Shown here: in pieces, positions 5,237 to 64,000 of the stretch
How the letters are laid out: each line of letters begins with the position of its first letter
How positions within the stretch are numbered: position 1 is the stretch's first letter
NCBI GenBank assembly: GCA_028281445.1
Contig: JANQJW010000014.1
Coordinates: 30,026 to 94,025 of the forward strand
Length of the DNA stretch: 64,000 bases
Source: Planctomycetota bacterium
GTDB taxonomy: Bacteria; Planctomycetota; PLA2; JAEUHO01
Reading direction: 5' to 3'
Made by a program: the position numbers and the translations under genes
The notes under the pieces: model-generated
Seen by the model: only the letters and a program-made list of their open reading frames with translations
What the model was told of the DNA's origin: nothing
Database searches by the model: none

Positions 5237-5463
5237 CGGCGCCGGTTCCCGGCTGTTCTGCGACCCGCAGGGTGCCCAACCTCACGCCGTACGGTGTGCG
5301 CCTGCTCGGCCACGGCAACGGCCACGGCCACGGCAACGTGAGCGACATGCGGTCTCGCTAAGGGCGGCCGAGCCTCTAGCAGGCCCCTTCGGCCCACCGG
5401 CTTTTCTTGGGGCCCCACAGCCCGCCGGACCGATACTTCTGGGCTGCCTAGGAAGAAGCTGCC

Positions 5464-11601: not shown

Positions 11602-11737
11602 CGCGGGAGGGTCGTGTCTTCGCTCCTGCGGAGCGGCCCTCCCCTACATGATTCTCCGTGTGCCCATGCAAGGACATGTAGGGACGAGCCTTGTGCTCGT
11701 CCGCGGGTTCCTGCCAAACCCCGAGTAGGATCCCGCG

Positions 11738-12985
11738 GTGACCACGGCGCGAGCGAAGTACGGCGACGACGAGATCGAGCTCGCGTTCCCGGCCGGCGTG
11801 GACGTCTCCGTGTTCGCCCCGAAGACGGCGACGAGGGACCACGAGCCCCTCGGCATCGTTGCGCGCGCCGTCGACGTCCCGATCGACGCGCCGCCTCTGG
11901 CAGACGCGGCAGCGAACGCAAAGAACGTCACCGTGGTCGTGCCGGACGGCACGCGGCCGCATGGCGCACGCACGTACCTCCTGCCCGTGCTCGCGCGGCT
12001 CGCCCGGGCGGGTCTCGGTCCCGAGCGCATCCACGTCGTCATGGCCCGCGGCATCCATCCCGCGACCCCGCGCCGCACGGTCGAGGCAATGCTCGGCCCG
12101 GAGATCATGAACCTGCTGCGGCCGGTGCAGTCGGCACCCAAGACGCCGGACATGAACGTGGAGATCGGAAACGACTCTGCGATCGGGCCGGTGCGCGTGC
12201 ACCGACTCGTCGCCGAGGCCGACCTCGTCGTGCTGACAGGTCCGGTCGTCCCCCACCATCTCGCCGGCTTCGGCGGCGGCCCCAAGGCACTCGTGCCGGG
12301 GGTGGCGGACCGGGAGACGGTGCTCTCGGCGCACAGGCTCACGCTGGACGCCCTCGTGCGGCCGGACGGCTCCATTCGCGGCGCCGAGGGTCGGCTCGAC
12401 GGGAACGCCTTCTACGGGGCCCTGTTGCGCGTGGCGCGCACCTTCGGCAAGGCCTGGCTCCTGAACGTCGTGCCCGGCGAGGGCGAGCAGGTGCTGGGTG
12501 CCGCCGCGGGCGAGGTCGGCGCGGCGCACGCCGAAGCGTGCAGGCTCTGGCAGGAGAGCCACGCCGTGGCCGACCCGACGCCCCACGACCTCGTGATCAC
12601 CGGGACGGCGGGCCCGCGGGGCGACGACCTGATCCAGGCGCACAAGGCCCTGCTGCGGGCGCTTCGCTGGGCAAGGCCCGGCGCCCCCATCGTGTGGCTG
12701 GCGCGTGCGCGCAACGGCCCGGGCCACCCGGCGCTCCTGCAGTGGTTCTCCGCCGGCAAGCCGCCGCGACACCTGGCGGCGCTACGCAGGGACTTCCACC
12801 CGTACGGCCTGACCGCCTACAGCCTGCGGCGTATCAGCAAGGACCACCCGGTGCACATCGTCAGCGACATGTCGCGCGACCTGCTTCGGCCGATGGGCTT
12901 CCTCTCCTTCCAGGACCCGCACGCAGCAGTGCGCTACGCCTTGGAAGAGAACGACGTGGAGACGTGCGCGGTCTTGCCGGGGTAG
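11738..12985 (+). CDS. LarA-like protein (lactate racemase N-terminal domain/DUF2088 family). GTG start.
   Basis: Length and motif layout match nickel-pincer lactate racemase homologues (NVTVVVPDGTRPHG, HVVMARGIHPA, GPVVPHHLAGFGGGPKALVPG). Confidence 0.5.
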   Translation: MTTARAKYGDDEIELAFPAGVDVSVFAPKTATRDHEPLGIVARAVDVPIDAPPLADAAANAKNVTVVVPDGTRPHGARTYLLPVLARLARAGLGPERIHVVMARGIHPATPRRTVEAMLGPEIMNLLRPVQSAPKTPDMNVEIGNDSAIGPVRVHRLVAEADLVVLTGPVVPHHLAGFGGGPKALVPGVADRETVLSAHRLTLDALVRPDGSIRGAEGRLDGNAFYGALLRVARTFGKAWLLNVVPGEGEQVLGAAAGEVGAAHAEACRLWQESHAVADPTPHDLVITGTAGPRGDDLIQAHKALLRALRWARPGAPIVWLARARNGPGHPALLQWFSAGKPPRHLAALRRDFHPYGLTAYSLRRISKDHPVHIVSDMSRDLLRPMGFLSFQDPHAAVRYALEENDVETCAVLPG

Positions 12986-16948: not shown

Positions 16949-17030
16949 GCCGGGGACCCAGCCTAGGCCAAAAAGAAGCGGGCCGGGGTCTCGCGACCCC
17001 GGCCCGCCGGATTCCATTCGGAACGGACGC

Positions 17031-22176: not shown

Positions 22177-22308
22177 CGATGTAGGGGCGACCCGAGGCCC
22201 CTGGCCGAGTGGTCGGCCCGGTTCGGCGGATCGGGTACCGCGATCTATGGAGCAAGGACGTCGCGGGCCGACCACTCGCTCGCGCTCGGGTCGGTCGCCC
22301 CTACATCG
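22177..22308. repeat. Palindromic intergenic repeat element, family A, copy 1: two ~43-bp inverted arms around a ~43-bp spacer.
   Basis: cgatgtaggggcgacccgaggcccctggccgagtggtcggcccg ... cgggccgaccactcgctcgcgctcgggtcggtcgcccctacatcg. The arms are reverse complements. The same arm sequence recurs at 37029..37148 and 43098..43218. Confidence 0.8.
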
Positions 22309-22343: not shown

Positions 22344-23897
22344 CTACCGCCAGAGCAGCCCGAGCGACTGCGCCGCTTCGTGCGCCCACTCGTAGAAGGG
22401 CCCCATCGCGATACCCATCCCGACCATCGCGACCATGCCGAACACCAGGACGCCACGCGTGATGGGATGGATCGCGATCGGCGGCTCGTCGGCGGTCTCC
22501 GGCGCCGGCGCGCGGAGGTACATCTCCTTGATCCACAAGAAGTAGAAGTACAAGCCGATGATGACCGCCGCCGCGCCGATGACGGCGAGGGCGATCATGC
22601 CCTTGTCGATCACGGCGTTGAGGATCAGGAACTTCGCGAAGAAGCCGGCCATCGGCGGGACGCCTGCCAGCGAGAGCAGGGCGAGGCACATGGCCAGCGC
22701 GAGGAACGGAGAGCGCCGCGCGAGACCGGTCCAGGCGGCGGCCCCGTGGGTACCCGTCGCGGCCGATACCGCGATGATCACCGTGAAGGCCGTCACGCTC
22801 GTGACGAAGTAGGCCATGATGTAGAACAGCAATGCCGACGGCCCGAAGGGCTCGCCGCTGCCGCCGGACGCCGCCATCGCGGCGATGCCCATGATCATGT
22901 AGCCCGCGTGACCGATCGACGAGAAGGCCAGCATGCGCTTCATGTCGCGCTGCGGGATCGCACTCAGCACGCCGAAGAGCAGCGTGAGCGCGGCGACCGC
23001 GCCGAGCAGCAGCGCCCAGGACCCGGAATCCGGATTGTCGAGCGCCGGCAGGAACGCTGCTTCGCCAAAGCGGAGCAGCAGAATCACGCCGGCCGCCTTG
23101 GACGCCGTGATCAGGAACGCCGTCACCGGGCTCGGCGCGCCTTCGTAGACGTCGGGGATCCAGACGTGGAACGGCACGCCGCCGACCTTGAAGAACAGGC
23201 CGACCAGCACGAACGCGATGCCCAGCACCAGGAATGCACTCGGCGGGCCCGAGGCCACGCTCTTGGCGAGGGCCTCAAAAGAGATCGAACCCGTCGCGCC
23301 GTAGATCAACGCGATGCCGAGCAGCAGCACCGCCGTCGATACGGCGCCGATCACGAGGTACTTCAGGCCGGCCTCGGTGGAGCGTAGGTCGTTGCGCCGG
23401 AAGGCCGCCAGGATGTAGGCCATGATCGTGACCAGCTCGAGGCACACGAAGAGGGACAGCATGTCCGACACGCCCGAGACGAGCATGACGCCGAGCAGCG
23501 CGAAGAGCAGCAGCGCGTAGAACTCACCGTGACCGCGGTCCATCCGGCGGGTGAACGGCATCGCCATGAGGACCAGCAACGCCCCTCCGCCGGCGATGAC
23601 GGCGCGCGAGAAGATGGAGAACGCGTCAGAACGCCAGCCGGAAATCATCTCGCCGGCTTCGCCCTTCACGTGGATGGCGAACTGCGTGCTCGTCGGCTCC
23701 ATGGTGAGGAGCACGATGAACGCGATGACGAGGCCGATGAGCGACGTCCAGGCCGTGGCGGCCGCCCGGCGGCCGGCCGGTAGCACGAGCTCGGGGATGA
23801 TCGCGCCGAGCGCGGTGCCGGCCACGATGAACTCCGGCAGCATGAGCTGCAGGTTCGGCGTCAGGGCTTCAGGCAGCTCGATACCGAGGAAGATCAT
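22344..23897 (-). CDS. nuoN: NADH-quinone oxidoreductase subunit N.
   Basis: Polytopic antiporter-like subunit. Last gene of the nuo operon. Overlaps the nuoM stop (ATGA). Confidence 0.85.
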   Translation of the reverse strand: MIFLGIELPEALTPNLQLMLPEFIVAGTALGAIIPELVLPAGRRAAATAWTSLIGLVIAFIVLLTMEPTSTQFAIHVKGEAGEMISGWRSDAFSIFSRAVIAGGGALLVLMAMPFTRRMDRGHGEFYALLLFALLGVMLVSGVSDMLSLFVCLELVTIMAYILAAFRRNDLRSTEAGLKYLVIGAVSTAVLLLGIALIYGATGSISFEALAKSVASGPPSAFLVLGIAFVLVGLFFKVGGVPFHVWIPDVYEGAPSPVTAFLITASKAAGVILLLRFGEAAFLPALDNPDSGSWALLLGAVAALTLLFGVLSAIPQRDMKRMLAFSSIGHAGYMIMGIAAMAASGGSGEPFGPSALLFYIMAYFVTSVTAFTVIIAVSAATGTHGAAAWTGLARRSPFLALAMCLALLSLAGVPPMAGFFAKFLILNAVIDKGMIALAVIGAAAVIIGLYFYFLWIKEMYLRAPAPETADEPPIAIHPITRGVLVFGMVAMVGMGIAMGPFYEWAHEAAQSLGLLWR

Positions 23898-36954: not shown

Positions 36955-37028
36955 TGCGCGGTATTCAACCGTGGCGGGGAGCCCCGGGCGACGAAAACCG
37001 CGCTCGCGGACGGCGCTTGGCCCTCGCT

Positions 37029-37148
37029 GGCCGACCACTCCGCTGCGCTCGGGTCGCCCCTACACCGCGCCCCTTGCCGGCGACCGCCCACAGGGGGAAG
37101 GACGATGTAGGGGCGACCCGAGGCCCGCAGGGCCGAGTGGTCGGCCCG
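37029..37148. repeat. Palindromic intergenic repeat element, family A, copy 2.
   Basis: ggccgaccactccgctgcgctcgggtcgcccctacaccg ... cgatgtaggggcgacccgaggcccgcagggccgagtggtcggcccg. Lies between nuoA and the FG-GAP lipoprotein gene. Confidence 0.8.
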
Positions 37149-37163
37149 CGATCCCGCCAGCGC

Positions 37164-39176: not shown

Positions 39177-39387
39177 AGGGTGGCGCCTTTCGTCGGGTCA
39201 GCGGGACGAACGCGGACCAGAGGCAGGATCATCCCGGGGGAGCGTGGACGCGTAAAGGCAGGGCCGCGGAGAGGTGACGACGGAGGATCGGTCGCGCAAG
39301 AGAAAGGACGACGCAGGATCGGAGGCGAACGGCTCAAGGAGAGCGCCTCGCGTTGCCGTGGCCGAGTGGATGGCCACGTGTTCCGGG

Positions 39388-41915: not shown

Positions 41916-43094
41916 ATGCCGCCCATGGACCTCGATGACGCCCGGTTTCTGGCTGCTGATGGCGGTTTCCGGCTGCTCGAGGCCGCCCGAACAACGCGAG
42001 AACTGCCGGCGCACCGGCGCGCGGGTGCCTTGGCCGAATGCGGAACGCCGGATCAGGTGCGCCTGGCCCTCCAGCAGGACGATCTGCGGGTGAAGGCGCT
42101 GGCGCGCTGCCCCCATGCGGAGCGGCTGTTGTTCACGCCGGAGGCGCTCGAGCAGGCGACCGCCTGGCCGGTCGCCGAGGAACGCGCGACACGCTGGCAC
42201 GCCGGGCCGGACGAGCCGTTGCACGACCTCGGCGCCGGTATCGGCATGGACTCGCTGGCGACCGCGCTGCGCGGCCGCCCGGTCGTGGCCTACGAGCAGG
42301 ACCCGGTGCGCGCCACGCTGCTGGCCCACAACGCGCGTGCGCTGGACCTCGCGGTGGACGTGCGCACCGCCGACCTGCGTGCGGAGAAGCCAGGCGGTGC
42401 GCTCGCCCTGCTCGATCCCGACCGACGCCCCGGCGGACGGCGCACGCGCGACCGGGACGCGTTCGAACCGCCGCGCGACACGTGGGCGGCCATCACGAGC
42501 CGGTTCGAACGCGCGATGATCAAGCTGCCTCCCACCGCGACGGACGAGGCGGAGGCGCATCCCTTCGAGGTCGTCTCGCTGCATGGGCGCGCCCGCGAGC
42601 GGCGCCTGTTCACGGAGGGCTGGGCCCTGCCGCCCCGCCGCGCGCTGGCCCTGCCCTCCGGTCGCAGCGTCGAGGGGGCGGGCGCGCGCTGGCCCGATCC
42701 CGTCGACGTCAAGGAGGGCGACTGGATCCTCGACCCGGACACGTCGGTCGTGTTGGCGGGCCTCGTCGGTGATCTCGCCCTACGCGATGGCCTGCAACCG
42801 GTGCATCCCGAGATTGCCTACCTCGTGGGCGCCGCGCCGAACGACACGGCGCCCGGTCACTGGGTCCGGGTGGACGCGGTGCTGTCGCCGCACCCCAAGA
42901 AGCTGAAGGCGTGGCTGCGCGCGCACGCCGTCGGCAACCTGACGATCCGCAAGCGCGGCGTGGCGACGTCCGTCGAGAAGTGGCGGCGCCTGATCCAGCC
43001 CAAGGGCAAGAACGCCGCGACGCTGGTGATCGCGCGGGATGTCCGGGATCGCTGGGTGGCGTATGGATGTCGTGGTCCGGACGCCGCCGGGTAA
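41916..43094 (+). CDS. Class I SAM-dependent methyltransferase-like protein (THUMP-like/putative RNA methyltransferase family).
   Basis: Motif I LHDLGAGIGMDSLA and acidic motif II ALLDPDRRP. No other domains recognised. Confidence 0.45.
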   Translation: MPPMDLDDARFLAADGGFRLLEAARTTRELPAHRRAGALAECGTPDQVRLALQQDDLRVKALARCPHAERLLFTPEALEQATAWPVAEERATRWHAGPDEPLHDLGAGIGMDSLATALRGRPVVAYEQDPVRATLLAHNARALDLAVDVRTADLRAEKPGGALALLDPDRRPGGRRTRDRDAFEPPRDTWAAITSRFERAMIKLPPTATDEAEAHPFEVVSLHGRARERRLFTEGWALPPRRALALPSGRSVEGAGARWPDPVDVKEGDWILDPDTSVVLAGLVGDLALRDGLQPVHPEIAYLVGAAPNDTAPGHWVRVDAVLSPHPKKLKAWLRAHAVGNLTIRKRGVATSVEKWRRLIQPKGKNAATLVIARDVRDRWVAYGCRGPDAAG

Positions 43095-43097
43095 ACG

Positions 43098-43218
43098 CGG
43101 GCCGACCACTCGCTTCGCTCGGGTCGCCCCTACACCGATCCCCCACGTGTGCGCGACCGCCGGCCGTCGCCGCGATGTAGGGGCGACCCGAGGTCCGCAG
43201 GGCCGAGTGGTCGGCCCG
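43098..43218. repeat. Palindromic intergenic repeat element, family A, copy 3.
   Basis: cgggccgaccactcgcttcgctcgggtcgcccctacaccg ... cgatgtaggggcgacccgaggtccgcagggccgagtggtcggcccg. Starts 3 nt after the methyltransferase stop codon. Confidence 0.8.
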
Positions 43219-43238
43219 CGAATGTGGATCCGTACGCC

Positions 43239-43862
43239 CTAGTCAGGAAATCCCGGCAGCGGCGGCAAGCCCGGAATCGGGCCTTCCTTCTCCTCGGTGT
43301 GCACCGGATCCGGACGACGGATGCGCGGGCTCGTGCCCGGCTTCATGCGGTACTGCTCGCGGAACTCCGGGCTCACGTCGCTAGGCAGGAAGTACATCTC
43401 GACCCGGCGGTTGATCAGATGCTCCATCGTCGTGTTGCGCTTGCCCTCGACCCACTTCGCAGCGATCGGATTGCTCGGCTCGGTGATGTTGTCGTTCGTC
43501 TGCTTGATGACGTTGGTGCTGAGCTCGTAGTAGTTGGTCCGGCCGCGGACGGGGCGAATGTTCATCGTCACCTTCTCGCGGTAGCCGGTACCGGCGAACG
43601 GCGAGAGCGACATCTTCCAGCGCGTCATGATCGTTCCGGAGTCGCTCGCACAGAGGGACGGATCCGGGATGTAGCCCTGCTGACGCAGCACGCGCATGCC
43701 GGCGGCGTAGACCGACTCCTTGCTCGGGGCCGGGAAGCCGTCACTGCATGTGCCGGACTTGTCCTCGCGCGCGAGGAACGAGTCGGCCGACGTCTGTCCG
43801 AGCGGCGTGCAGGCCGCCAAACCGAGGATGAGCAGGGGCACGAAGAGACGCATCTTGTTCAT
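43239..43862 (-). CDS. Hypothetical lipoprotein.
   Basis: Signal peptide plus lipobox MNKMRLFVPLLILGLAACTP. No recognisable domains. Confidence 0.5.
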   Translation of the reverse strand: MNKMRLFVPLLILGLAACTPLGQTSADSFLAREDKSGTCSDGFPAPSKESVYAAGMRVLRQQGYIPDPSLCASDSGTIMTRWKMSLSPFAGTGYREKVTMNIRPVRGRTNYYELSTNVIKQTNDNITEPSNPIAAKWVEGKRNTTMEHLINRRVEMYFLPSDVSPEFREQYRMKPGTSPRIRRPDPVHTEEKEGPIPGLPPLPGFPD

Positions 43863-53788: not shown

Positions 53789-55189
53789 TCAGCGCGGCCC
53801 CTTGAGATTCTTGGAGGGGGAGCGCTCGCGCTGCTTGAGGAAGATGCGAACCGGCACCTCCGCCATCGGGAACGCCTGGCGGATCCGGTTGCCGAGATAG
53901 CGGATGTAGCTGGGCTGGAAAAGGTACGTCTCGTTCACGAACAACGTGAACGTCGGCGGCGCGACATCGACCTGGCTACCGTAGTAGATCCGCCCGATTC
54001 GCCCCTGCTTCGGGCGTGGCTTGCGGCGGGCGTAGGCCGCTTCGAGGAGCTTGTTCACCTCGGCGGTGGAGACGCGCGTCTGCGCCTGCTCGTGGAGGCC
54101 GCGCGCGACCTCGAGCACGCGATCGACGTTCTTGCGTTCGAGCGCACTCGCGAAGACGACCGGCGCGAACGGAATGCCGGGCAGTACTTTGTCGAGGTAG
54201 TTCGCGAACTCCTTCTGCGTGATGCCCGCCTCTTCGCACAGGTCCCACTTGTTGGCGACGACCACGACCGGCTGGAAGTGCTTCACGGCGTAGCCGGCGA
54301 TCTGGCGGTCGAGCCTGCCGACGTCCACGCTCGCATCCAGCATGAGGATGGTCACGTTCGCCCGCCGCATGGCCTTCTCGGCTCGGCGCTGCGCATAGAA
54401 TTCGACCGAGCCGTGCACCGCGCGCTCCTTGCGGATGCCGGCGGTGTCGATCATCACGAAGACATCGCCGTCGCGCCGGAACCGGATGTCCACGCTGTCG
54501 CGCGTCGTGCCGGGGATCTCGCTCACGATCATGCGGTCGTCTTCGAGCATGGCGTTGACGAACGTGCTCTTGCCCGCGTTGACGCGGCCGACGACCGCCA
54601 GCTTCATCTCGGGCGGCGGCAGCTTCGGCGGAGTGATCAGCCCCTCCGGCAGGTGCGGCTCGATGCGTTCCTCGAGGGTGTCGAGGTTGATGCGCTCCTT
54701 GGCCGAGATCTCGAGCGGCTCGCCGTAGCCGAGCGTAGCGAAATCGGCCAGGTTCCACGTAACGGAGTCGGCTTCCACCTTGTTCGCGACGAGGATCACG
54801 TTGTCGGTGCGCTCGCGCAATAGGTGCGCGACGCGCTCGTCCAGCGGTGTCCGGCCTTCACGTGCATCCACGACGAAGAGCACGCAGTCGGCTTCCTGCA
54901 GTGCGGCGGCGACCTGGTCCTCGACGTCGGCGTCGAGGCCCTGCATGTCGACGATGCCGATGCCGCCGGTGTCCACGACCTCCACGGTTCGGTCCGCGAG
55001 CGTGCAGAGCACCTCGACGCGGTCCCGCGTGACGCCGGGTGTCTCCTCGACGATGGCGATGCGGCTGCGGGCGAACGCGTTGAGGAGGGTCGACTTGCCG
55101 ACGTTGGGCCGGCCAACGATGGCCACGACCGGCGGACGCACCGACTCCGCGGGCGAGGTCTCCGCAGGCTTGTCCTGCTCGTCGGTCAT
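53789..55189 (-). CDS. der: Ribosome-associated GTPase Der (EngA).
   Basis: Two tandem GTPase domains (GRPNVGKST...DTGG...NKVE; GRVNAGKST...DTAG...NKWD) plus a C-terminal KH-like domain. Confidence 0.9.
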   Translation of the reverse strand: MTDEQDKPAETSPAESVRPPVVAIVGRPNVGKSTLLNAFARSRIAIVEETPGVTRDRVEVLCTLADRTVEVVDTGGIGIVDMQGLDADVEDQVAAALQEADCVLFVVDAREGRTPLDERVAHLLRERTDNVILVANKVEADSVTWNLADFATLGYGEPLEISAKERINLDTLEERIEPHLPEGLITPPKLPPPEMKLAVVGRVNAGKSTFVNAMLEDDRMIVSEIPGTTRDSVDIRFRRDGDVFVMIDTAGIRKERAVHGSVEFYAQRRAEKAMRRANVTILMLDASVDVGRLDRQIAGYAVKHFQPVVVVANKWDLCEEAGITQKEFANYLDKVLPGIPFAPVVFASALERKNVDRVLEVARGLHEQAQTRVSTAEVNKLLEAAYARRKPRPKQGRIGRIYYGSQVDVAPPTFTLFVNETYLFQPSYIRYLGNRIRQAFPMAEVPVRIFLKQRERSPSKNLKGPR

Positions 55190-55227
55190 CCCCCGAGAGT
55201 ACGTGAGGTGCCATGGCCTCGTAACTC

Positions 55228-55372
55228 TCCACAGAGGCGCAGAGGCACGGAGCGGCGCCTGCGGCCGCCCGTGTCCCCCCTTGGACTCCACCTACGGGTC
55301 GCAAGCGGCCGCCGCTCGAAATCGGCGATTCGGCGCCCTGCCCGAAGCGCTCTGCGCCTCTGTGCCTCTGCG
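55228..55372. repeat. Inverted repeat element, family B, copy 1: arms made of tandem CCTCTGYG octamers, ~90-bp spacer. Lies upstream of der.
   Basis: tccacagaggcgcagaggcacggagcg ... cgctctgcgcctctgtgcctctgcgga. The arms are near reverse complements. Confidence 0.7.
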
Positions 55373-55379
55373 GAGGGAC

Positions 55380-60933: not shown

Positions 60934-61090
60934 GAACTCCGCAGAGACGCAGAGTCACGGAGCGCGCACCTCCGAGCGCAACGCAATTCCTGTTGAACTC
61001 CGTCCCGTAGCTCTGAGCCCGGGACTCAAGACGGACTGCGTACGACGGCTGGAGACGCTCTGCGCCTCTGTACCTCTGTACCTCTGCGGA
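60934..61090. repeat. Inverted repeat element, family B, copy 2, upstream of dnaJ.
   Basis: tccgcagagacgcagagtcacggagcg ... cgctctgcgcctctgtacctctgtacctctgcgga. Same arm consensus as 55228..55372, with a different spacer. Confidence 0.7.
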
Positions 61091-62698
<1,608 letters not shown>

Positions 62699-63093: not shown

Positions 63094-64000
63094 CTAGAAG
63101 TCCTCGTCCATGCCCGGTGCGGCCTCGCCTTCCTCCTCGGGGAGGTCGGCGATCAGCGTGTCGGTGGACATGAGCAGGGCCGCCACGCTGGCGGCGTTCT
63201 GCAGCGCGCTGCGCGAGACCTTCGTCGGGTCGACGATGCCGGCGTCGAACATGTCGGTCTCCTTGCCCGTGTGGGCGTCGAAGCCGACGGTCTGCTTGGC
63301 CTTGCGCACGTTGCGCAGCACGACGTGCCCCTCGTAGCCCGCGTTGTCGGCGATGGTGCGCAGCGGCACCTGCAGCGAGTCGAGCACGACCTGGACGCCC
63401 AGCGCTTCGTCGCCTTCCGTCTCGTCGAGCAGCTTCTTGACGGCCTTCTCAGCGCGGACGAACGCGGTGCCGCCGCCGGCGAGGATGCCCTCCTCGACCG
63501 CCGCGCGGGTGGCGTGGAGCGCGTCCTCGACGCGCGCCTTCTTCTCCTTCATCTCGGTCTCGGTGGCTGCGCCGACCTCGATCTGGGCCACGCCGCCGGC
63601 GAGCTTGGCGAGGCGCTCCTGAAGCTTCTCGCGGTCGTAGTCCGAGTCGGTGTTCTCCGTCTCGCGCCGGATCTGCATGAGGCGCGCGGACAGCGCGGAG
63701 GCCTGGCCGACCCCGTCGACGATGACCGTGCTGTCGCCGTCGACCGTCACGCGGCGGCAGGAGCCGAGATCGTCGAGCGTGACCTGCTCCAGGTCCGCGC
63801 CGACATCGGGGAACATGGCCTTCGCACCCGTCAGGATCGCGATGTCCTCGAGCATGGCCTTGCGGCGGTCGCCGTAGCCAGGCGCCTTGACAGCGACCGT
63901 CTGCACGACGCCGCGCAGGCGGTTGAGCACGAGCGTCGCGAGCGCGTCGCCTTCGACGTCCTCGGCGATGATCAGGAGCGAGCGACCCGTCTTGCTGATC
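63094..64000 (-). CDS. groEL: Second GroEL paralogue, C-terminal ~300 aa only. The 5' end lies beyond the window.
   Basis: GroEL apical/equatorial C-terminal sequence ([23 protein letters not shown]...[10 protein letters not shown]). Ends ...GMDEDF. Only 50 bp separate it from groES downstream. Confidence 0.9.

Follow-up and report, generated by a model that had tools for sequence, protein, structure and literature searches.

Six units of about 43-48 nt, arranged as three inverted pairs and all of them intergenic, make up a dispersed, sharply bounded repeat family within the window, the term used here for the whole 64-kb stretch of DNA that was analysed. The units are very probably GTAG-tagged REPs assembled as inverted heterodimers, that is, REPIN- or BIME-like modules. 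The fuller reading, in which lineage-specific GTAG REP heterodimers have also been mobilised by a REP-associated tyrosine transposase (RAYT), is in our judgement likely, if less secure than the assignment to REPs. The sequence family is new; the kind of repeat, the REP, is well known in bacteria. An earlier note on this DNA had reported six units in three inverted pairs, and every one of them was found at its coordinates; its statement that all copies are intergenic also stands, the three loci all lying between genes. Its description of the elements as REP/BIME-like can be sharpened to GTAG-tagged REP heterodimers that occur in both published configurations.

In this window of 68% GC content, the 14-mer GGGTCGCCCCTACA, searched with up to two mismatches, matches 7 times as compared with 0.61 times in shuffled sequence, and 0 of 100 shuffles reached 7 matches. 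The units account for six of these matches, five of them exact and one with a single mismatch; the remaining match, at 11677, carries two mismatches. The count of GGCCGACCACTC in the window is 6 against 1.04 expected. A nhmmer profile built from the six units recovers exactly those six from the 64-kb window, with E values of 1e-11 to 1e-15; the next-best match has only E=0.76, so the window is without degenerate singlets. Units of subtype a (defined below) are 89-98% identical to each other and those of subtype b 91-95%, and across sites the arms are 89-98% identical while their flanks are unrelated.

Read from the tag, the unit has the form 5'-CG(A/G)T-GTAG-GGGCGACC-CGAG...GAGT-GGTCGGCC-CGCG-3'. 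The GTAG tag and the T before it are invariant in all six units. The foot helix formed by GGGCGACC and GGTCGGCC is likewise invariant, spans 8-9 bp and has one bulge or G.G mismatch in each of the six; beyond the foot lie a non-complementary internal loop and then a variable interior. In minimum-energy folds, bases 1-3 of the tag are unpaired and its final G is paired into the foot. The interior separates two subtypes, a longer one (a) with an apical GGCC(C)-loop-(G)GGCC hairpin of 4-5 bp, and a shorter one (b) whose interior is unstructured. The a unit of site 1, for example, reads CGAT-GTAG-GGGCGACC-CGAG-[GGCC CCT GGCC]-GAGT-GGTCGGCC-C. The earlier note had described one unit type of about 40-43 bp: a recurrent unit is indeed present, in the form of two subtypes rather than one, and at 43-48 nt it is slightly longer than typical REPs (~20-40 bp).

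Folded alone as single-stranded DNA, the a units reach -13.5 to -15.3 kcal/mol (z -2.1 to -2.8), the site 1 a unit forming its own hairpin at -13.5 kcal/mol (z -2.8) and the site 2 a unit at -15.3 kcal/mol (z -2.1). The b units alone form weak hairpins, no better than those of shuffles (z -0.8 to +0.8). Whole pairs, folded as RNA, are predicted to form long hairpins of -86 to -105 kcal/mol with z of -4.9 to -7.2, in agreement with the earlier proposal that each pair can fold into a long stem.

Each of the three loci consists of one a unit and one b unit in opposite orientation, and all three follow a stop codon by 1-35 nt, the flanking genes being co-directional or convergent. At site 1 the a unit occupies 22177..22219 on the plus strand (nhmmer E 1.9e-13; GTAG at 22181-22184) and the b unit 22262..22308 on the minus strand (CTAC at 22301-22304 on the plus strand), separated by a spacer between unit bodies at 22220..22261; the b unit carries a 4-nt GGTC duplication. 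Here the GTAG ends face outward, an 'HH' dimer in the nomenclature of Di Nocera. The site lies 35 nt past the nuoN stop codon (22344-22346); ~530 nt downstream of the site there is a same-strand gene of 1538 aa. At site 2 a minus-strand b unit (37025..37067), ~70 nt upstream of the nuoA ATG (36954), is followed by an inner spacer of 35 nt (37068..37102) and a plus-strand a unit (37103..37150) with an apical GGCCC-GCA-GGGCC hairpin, 13 nt from the stop codon (37164) of an FG-GAP/UnbV_ASPIC gene. Site 3 takes up the interval between the stop codons of two convergent genes: its minus-strand b unit (43096..43137) begins 1 nt after the stop codon at 43092-43094 of a THUMP-like methyltransferase-type gene, its inner spacer of 35 nt lies at 43138..43172, and its plus-strand a unit (43173..43220) ends 18 nt from the stop, at 43239, of a convergent 216-aa lipoprotein-like gene. 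The a units of sites 2 and 3, 6 kb apart, are 98% identical. At both of these sites the GTAG ends face inward ('TT' dimers), which upholds the earlier remark that copy 1 is flipped and that the unit is a module usable either way.

With the unit boundaries used here, the spacer from CTACA to TGTAG measures 41 nt at site 2 and again 41 nt at site 3, and at site 1 the tails are 47 nt apart; the earlier note had given 43-48 bp for all spacers. When one of them is reverse-complemented, the inner 35 nt of sites 2 and 3 match at 21 of 35 positions (60%), an identity reached by 0.04% of shuffles and a gapped alignment score reached by 0.18%; in direct orientation they match at 11 of 35 positions, which is not significant. 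The site 1 spacer has no significant similarity to that of site 2 or site 3. The spacers had been called unrelated, which is correct for site 1 and incorrect for the pair formed by sites 2 and 3. Because the flipped match concerns a single pair of copies among six comparisons, we treat it as an observation, not a result. On the strength of this 21/35 match, the GTAG-inside dimers of sites 2 and 3 probably share a single ancestral dimer, and the alignment suggests that the segment between the perfect 17-nt inverted heads was flipped in one of them with the a/b order kept. Minor curiosities of the family are that a is always paired with b, that two spacers have the same length of 41 nt, and that these two match in flipped orientation. 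We give little credence to a bolder reading in which the a+b heterodimer with its 41-nt spacer would be an invertible or hairpin-switch module, acting by recombination between the 17-nt heads and governing how nuo transcripts are processed at their 3' ends or how the nuo operon is insulated, or else the family would propagate in a planctomycete lineage free of any RAYT.

All the structural features that were tested agree with published work on GTAG REPs and REP doublets. Di Nocera, De Gregorio & Rocco 2013 (PMC3733652) defined a GTAG REP superfamily of 24 families in eight phyla, Planctomycetes included, with both HH (GTAG outside) and TT (GTAG inside) dimers whose members are mostly 20-100 bp apart, with spacers that vary in sequence and are similar in length, and, in Enterobacteria, with heterodimers whose loops differ in length. 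In their survey these REPs preferentially follow ORFs, in gaps between co-directional or convergent genes, and RAYT genes are flanked by GTAG repeats (PMC3733652). The window units share with this superfamily, and especially with the enterobacterial GTAG-3 REPs, the terminal GTAG tag, a GC-rich stem with a mismatch or bulge (6-13 bp), a complex loop with a GC-rich inner hairpin, both dimer configurations, heterodimers with unequal loops, and positions downstream of ORFs. At 43-48 nt they stand at the long end of its range, and they differ from it in stem sequence: a search of the supplement (PMC3733652) found no GGCGACC or GGCCGACC stems, and no family matched. The requirement of E. coli TnpAREP for a bulged, imperfect palindrome preceded by a conserved motif (Corneloup 2021, PMC8266576) is part of the same background. 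Within the phylum of the window's closest relative, Rhodopirellula baltica carries GTAG REPs of its own, GTAG-20/21, together with multiple tyrosine transposase genes that have corresponding flanking repeats (PMC3733652); these are different sequence families from the one described here.

Inverted REP doublets form hairpins in which spacer length and the capacity to form a hairpin outweigh spacer sequence (Bertels & Rainey 2011, PMC3116915). The REPINs of Pseudomonas fluorescens SBW25 (PMC3116915) resemble the window pairs in that two inverted REPs and a spacer make one long hairpin, and in that the spacer keeps its length (41 nt in each GTAG-inside dimer of the window) but its sequence only poorly. 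As with the SBW25 REPINs, no singlets occur within the 64 kb. The window pairs are unlike them in being a+b heterodimers, in occurring in both arrangements, and in having spacer homology in flipped orientation.

The E. coli BIMEs consist of alternating Y and Z REPs (Gilson/Bachellier; Ton-Hoang 2012). They have in common with the window elements two REP subtypes that alternate in inverted orientation, with tail-to-tail as well as head-to-head junctions. Unlike the BIMEs, the window elements lack both conserved linker motifs and an IHF-like site in the GC-rich spacers, form dimers only and no longer arrays, and are unrelated in sequence.

No HUH/Y1 transposase is encoded in the window according to a Pfam scan of 31 genes, a phmmer search with E. 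coli RayT and a clade HMM; a motif regular expression for RAYT, which was too strict, also had no match in the window. A RAYT-like protein profile search gave at least 8000 matches, and among the matches listed none carried a REP-derived peptide and none was GC-rich enough to nominate. In JGI metagenomes, RAYT-like genes lie on two of the 36 loci found with a relaxed version of the unit pattern, L014 and L008. The first carries a partial ORF; proteins homologous to it bear the name 'REP element-mobilizing transposase RayT' and have a PF01797 match. On the second, an ORF of 231 codons hits NF047646, 'REP-associated tyrosine transposase', with E 4e-17 and 62.4 bits, under the curated cutoff of 80, and GTAGGGGCGACCrGCyGGTCGCCCCTAC flanks this ORF on both sides. 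On another contig, L045, a RAYT-like gene is followed, 13 nt past its stop codon, by the start of GTAGGGGCGACCGGCCGGTCGCCCCTACA. On L008 and L045, which are independent metagenome contigs, RAYT-like ORFs are directly flanked by REPs whose head, GTAGGGGCGACC...GGTCGCCCCTAC(A), is identical to that of the window units. These flanking REPs are perfect palindromes from other organisms and have only the head, TGTAGGGGCGACC, in common with the window family. Since REPs with the same head flank RAYT-like genes on both contigs, the tag and 5' stem arm of the window REP belong to a repeat type that is RAYT-associated elsewhere.

More broadly, the metagenomic GTAGGGGCGACC-type REPs (L008, L045, L004 and others) are like the window units in the tag and 5' stem arm, TGTAGGGGCGACC, and both GGCCGACC and GGGCGACC stem types are present among them. 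They differ in being short perfect palindromes or compact double hairpins; in the window unit, by contrast, the GGGCGACC arm pairs with the GGTCGGCC arm across a 20-29-nt interior. The compact double hairpins, GTAG-GGGCCGACC..GGTCGGCCC-n-GGGCGACC..GGTCGCCC-CTAC, were seen in diverse metagenome contigs (L004 ~12170-12230, L018, L031, L006, L020, L035, L029, L034, L026 and L033), and beside them the window unit resembles a pairing of the 5' arm from one stem type with the 3' arm from the other. As a separate observation, a GTAG palindrome lies in frame immediately behind the HUH motif in RAYT-like genes of this clade. Its translation, xRGTxxRAPT or CRGDxPVAPT, is seen in 101 of the 235 proteins retrieved (P0001-P0235); examples lie at ~2495-2530 of L008, 136-163 of L041, 1370-1397 of L042 and 3154-3182 of L045. 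In effect, the transposase gene itself contains a conserved REP-like site.

Outside the window, the exact full-unit pattern had no match in representative genomes of 185,579 species (one genome each) and none in IMG/VR, and none of the 36 JGI loci found with the relaxed pattern is of the window family, these being other GTAGGGGCGACC-type repeats or chance coding matches. Translations of the units in all frames, compared with a set of 5.8 billion proteins, returned nothing at E<=10. The closest genome by a NuoH probe is a Planctomycetota MAG with 72% amino-acid identity and the same gene order, the FG-GAP gene followed by nuoA through nuoN. The repeat is absent from both orthologous nuo intergenic sites of this MAG, and at 72% identity the comparison is too distant to reveal clean insertion boundaries, so that absence is what was seen. 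Given its absence from the collections searched and from the syntenic MAG sites, the repeat family is lineage-specific, as REP families usually are. In the gap between the FG-GAP gene and nuoA, where the window has a REP dimer, the MAG has a ~55-nt direct repeat of its own (L039, 2257-2316 and 2462-2514).

SRA run SRR20820735 yielded four Logan contigs that are 100% identical to the window, and each has an end inside a REP unit: L001 at 22206, L002 at 37130, L044 at 37123 and L043 at 43125. L002 and L044 share an overlap of only 8 nt at the REP site; another junction shows the customary 30 nt. Within the window, no unit 29-mer is found a second time. Contig breaks inside units whose 29-mers do not recur in the window fit further copies in the genome, which is suggestive; loss of coverage at strong GC hairpins could also have produced them. 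If the 6 units at three loci in 64 kb are extrapolated, the copy number in the genome would be high.

The earlier note had suggested that the pairs could act as terminators, and in its canonical form this role finds no support. A terminator scan found no T-tract after any pair at the three sites, and a promoter scan there gave nothing. The same window has a canonical intrinsic terminator at 16977-17008 on the minus strand, ~20 nt past the stop codon of the 1538-aa gene, with a 14-bp GC-rich stem (12 G-C pairs), a 4-nt loop and then TCTTTTT. U-tract terminators are thus in use in this genome, and since the REP pairs are without a U-tract, we rejected canonical Rho-independent terminators as a candidate. 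At the gathering threshold, Rfam has no family anywhere in the window, and we set aside a sub-threshold Rfam match near site 1 as noise.

In the mechanism we favour, the units would be substrates of a REP-associated tyrosine (HUH/Y1) transposase, as other GTAG REPs are. The enzyme would bind the folded single-stranded hairpin together with the GTAG tag, cut and rejoin it without generating target duplications, and so scatter units or dimers through intergenic DNA; the cognate RAYT gene would lie elsewhere in the genome. We infer this mobilisation on single-stranded DNA from how the units are built, from the lack of target duplications, from REPtrons with the same head in metagenomes and from published work. 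A comparison of flanks for target-site duplications found none adjacent to any of the three pairs, the longest common flank strings being 4-5 nt and not adjacent to the element, and this is in keeping with HUH/Y1 enzymes, which are expected to leave none. Once in place, the dimers would be co-transcribed at the 3' ends of nuoN, of the FG-GAP gene and of the two convergent genes, where the long GC-rich RNA hairpins would most plausibly keep 3' exonucleases from the mRNA upstream or insulate adjacent transcription units. We hold this co-transcription and 3' protection or insulation of mRNAs with less assurance than the mobilisation itself.

The strongest competing explanation is an orphan or fossil REP family: the architecture would be identical, but the genome would have no active cognate RAYT. 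Such a family would resemble the CGTC REPs or E. coli strains that have lost rayT, and would be kept by host selection on RNA or DNA structure or by gene conversion. We consider this improbable, even though it fits several observations: RAYT was found neither in the window nor linked to the source organism, near-identical arms beside diverged or flipped spacers suggest selection or conversion acting on the arms, and REPtrons are sometimes missing (Di Nocera 2013, PMC3733652). However, the window is only ~1% of a typical genome, a REPtron is present in most GTAG-REP hosts (PMC3733652), and the 98% identity of a units 6 kb apart suggests recent copying.

Two further explanations would dispense with REPs altogether. 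In one, the pairs would be host-evolved regulatory palindromes (bidirectional terminators, attenuators or operators), immobile and alike through a common binding factor; their location at gene 3' ends and between convergent genes, their very stable predicted hairpins and the placement of site 2 between the FG-GAP gene and the start of the nuo operon are all compatible with such a role. We nevertheless find it very unlikely, because no T-tract follows the pairs in a genome that has canonical terminators, the genes next to the pairs have no function in common, the closest relative lacks the repeat at its syntenic sites, and conserved arms of ~45 nt with a GTAG tag far exceed what an operator needs. 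Least probable of all, and hardly credible, is a MITE whose ~40-bp arms would be terminal inverted repeats moved in trans by a DDE transposase. Sites of ~120-130 bp, intergenic and bounded by inverted ~40-bp arms, do have the outline of one, as the earlier note had pointed out, but that suggestion fails on the ends: with site 1 flipped, the outer termini are not constant (GTAG out at site 1, GGCCGACC out at sites 2 and 3), and elements without constant outer ends are not MITEs. Nor does a direct duplication flank any site, and every arm is itself a GTAG-tagged palindrome. RAYT-mobilised GTAG REP heterodimers therefore remain our preferred reading.

For annotation, the value of this reading is that intergenic hairpins of this kind can be labelled as REP-type repeats and not as terminators, sRNAs or MITEs. 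It may also account for breaks of short-read assemblies at REP units in the source organism, for which the contig ends are suggestive. A GC-rich, uncultured and probably planctomycete lineage, so assigned from a single NuoH match of 72% identity, is added to the hosts of GTAG REPs, and a defined a/b heterodimer family becomes usable as bait for the cognate RAYT.

Other repeated features were observed in the window. A second small intergenic repeat, GCGCTCTGCGCCTCTGTRCCTCTG, occurs at 55348-55374 and 61056-61090 (23 nt, 96% identity), and both copies adjoin chaperonin (Cpn60) genes. Paralogous chaperonin sequence at 61440-61965 and 63455-63980 has 76-86% DNA identity at a spacing of 2015 nt, with a Cpn10 gene between the two, and a third ORF, at 53789-55291, is a putative Cpn60; Pfam matched two Cpn60_TCP1 among the 31 genes scanned. 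A GGCCACGGCAACG-type motif is shared in inverted orientation between intergenic sequence at 5305-5338 and at 39351-39366, and at 5305-5338 it takes the form of a tandem GGCCACGGC(A/C)ACG run.
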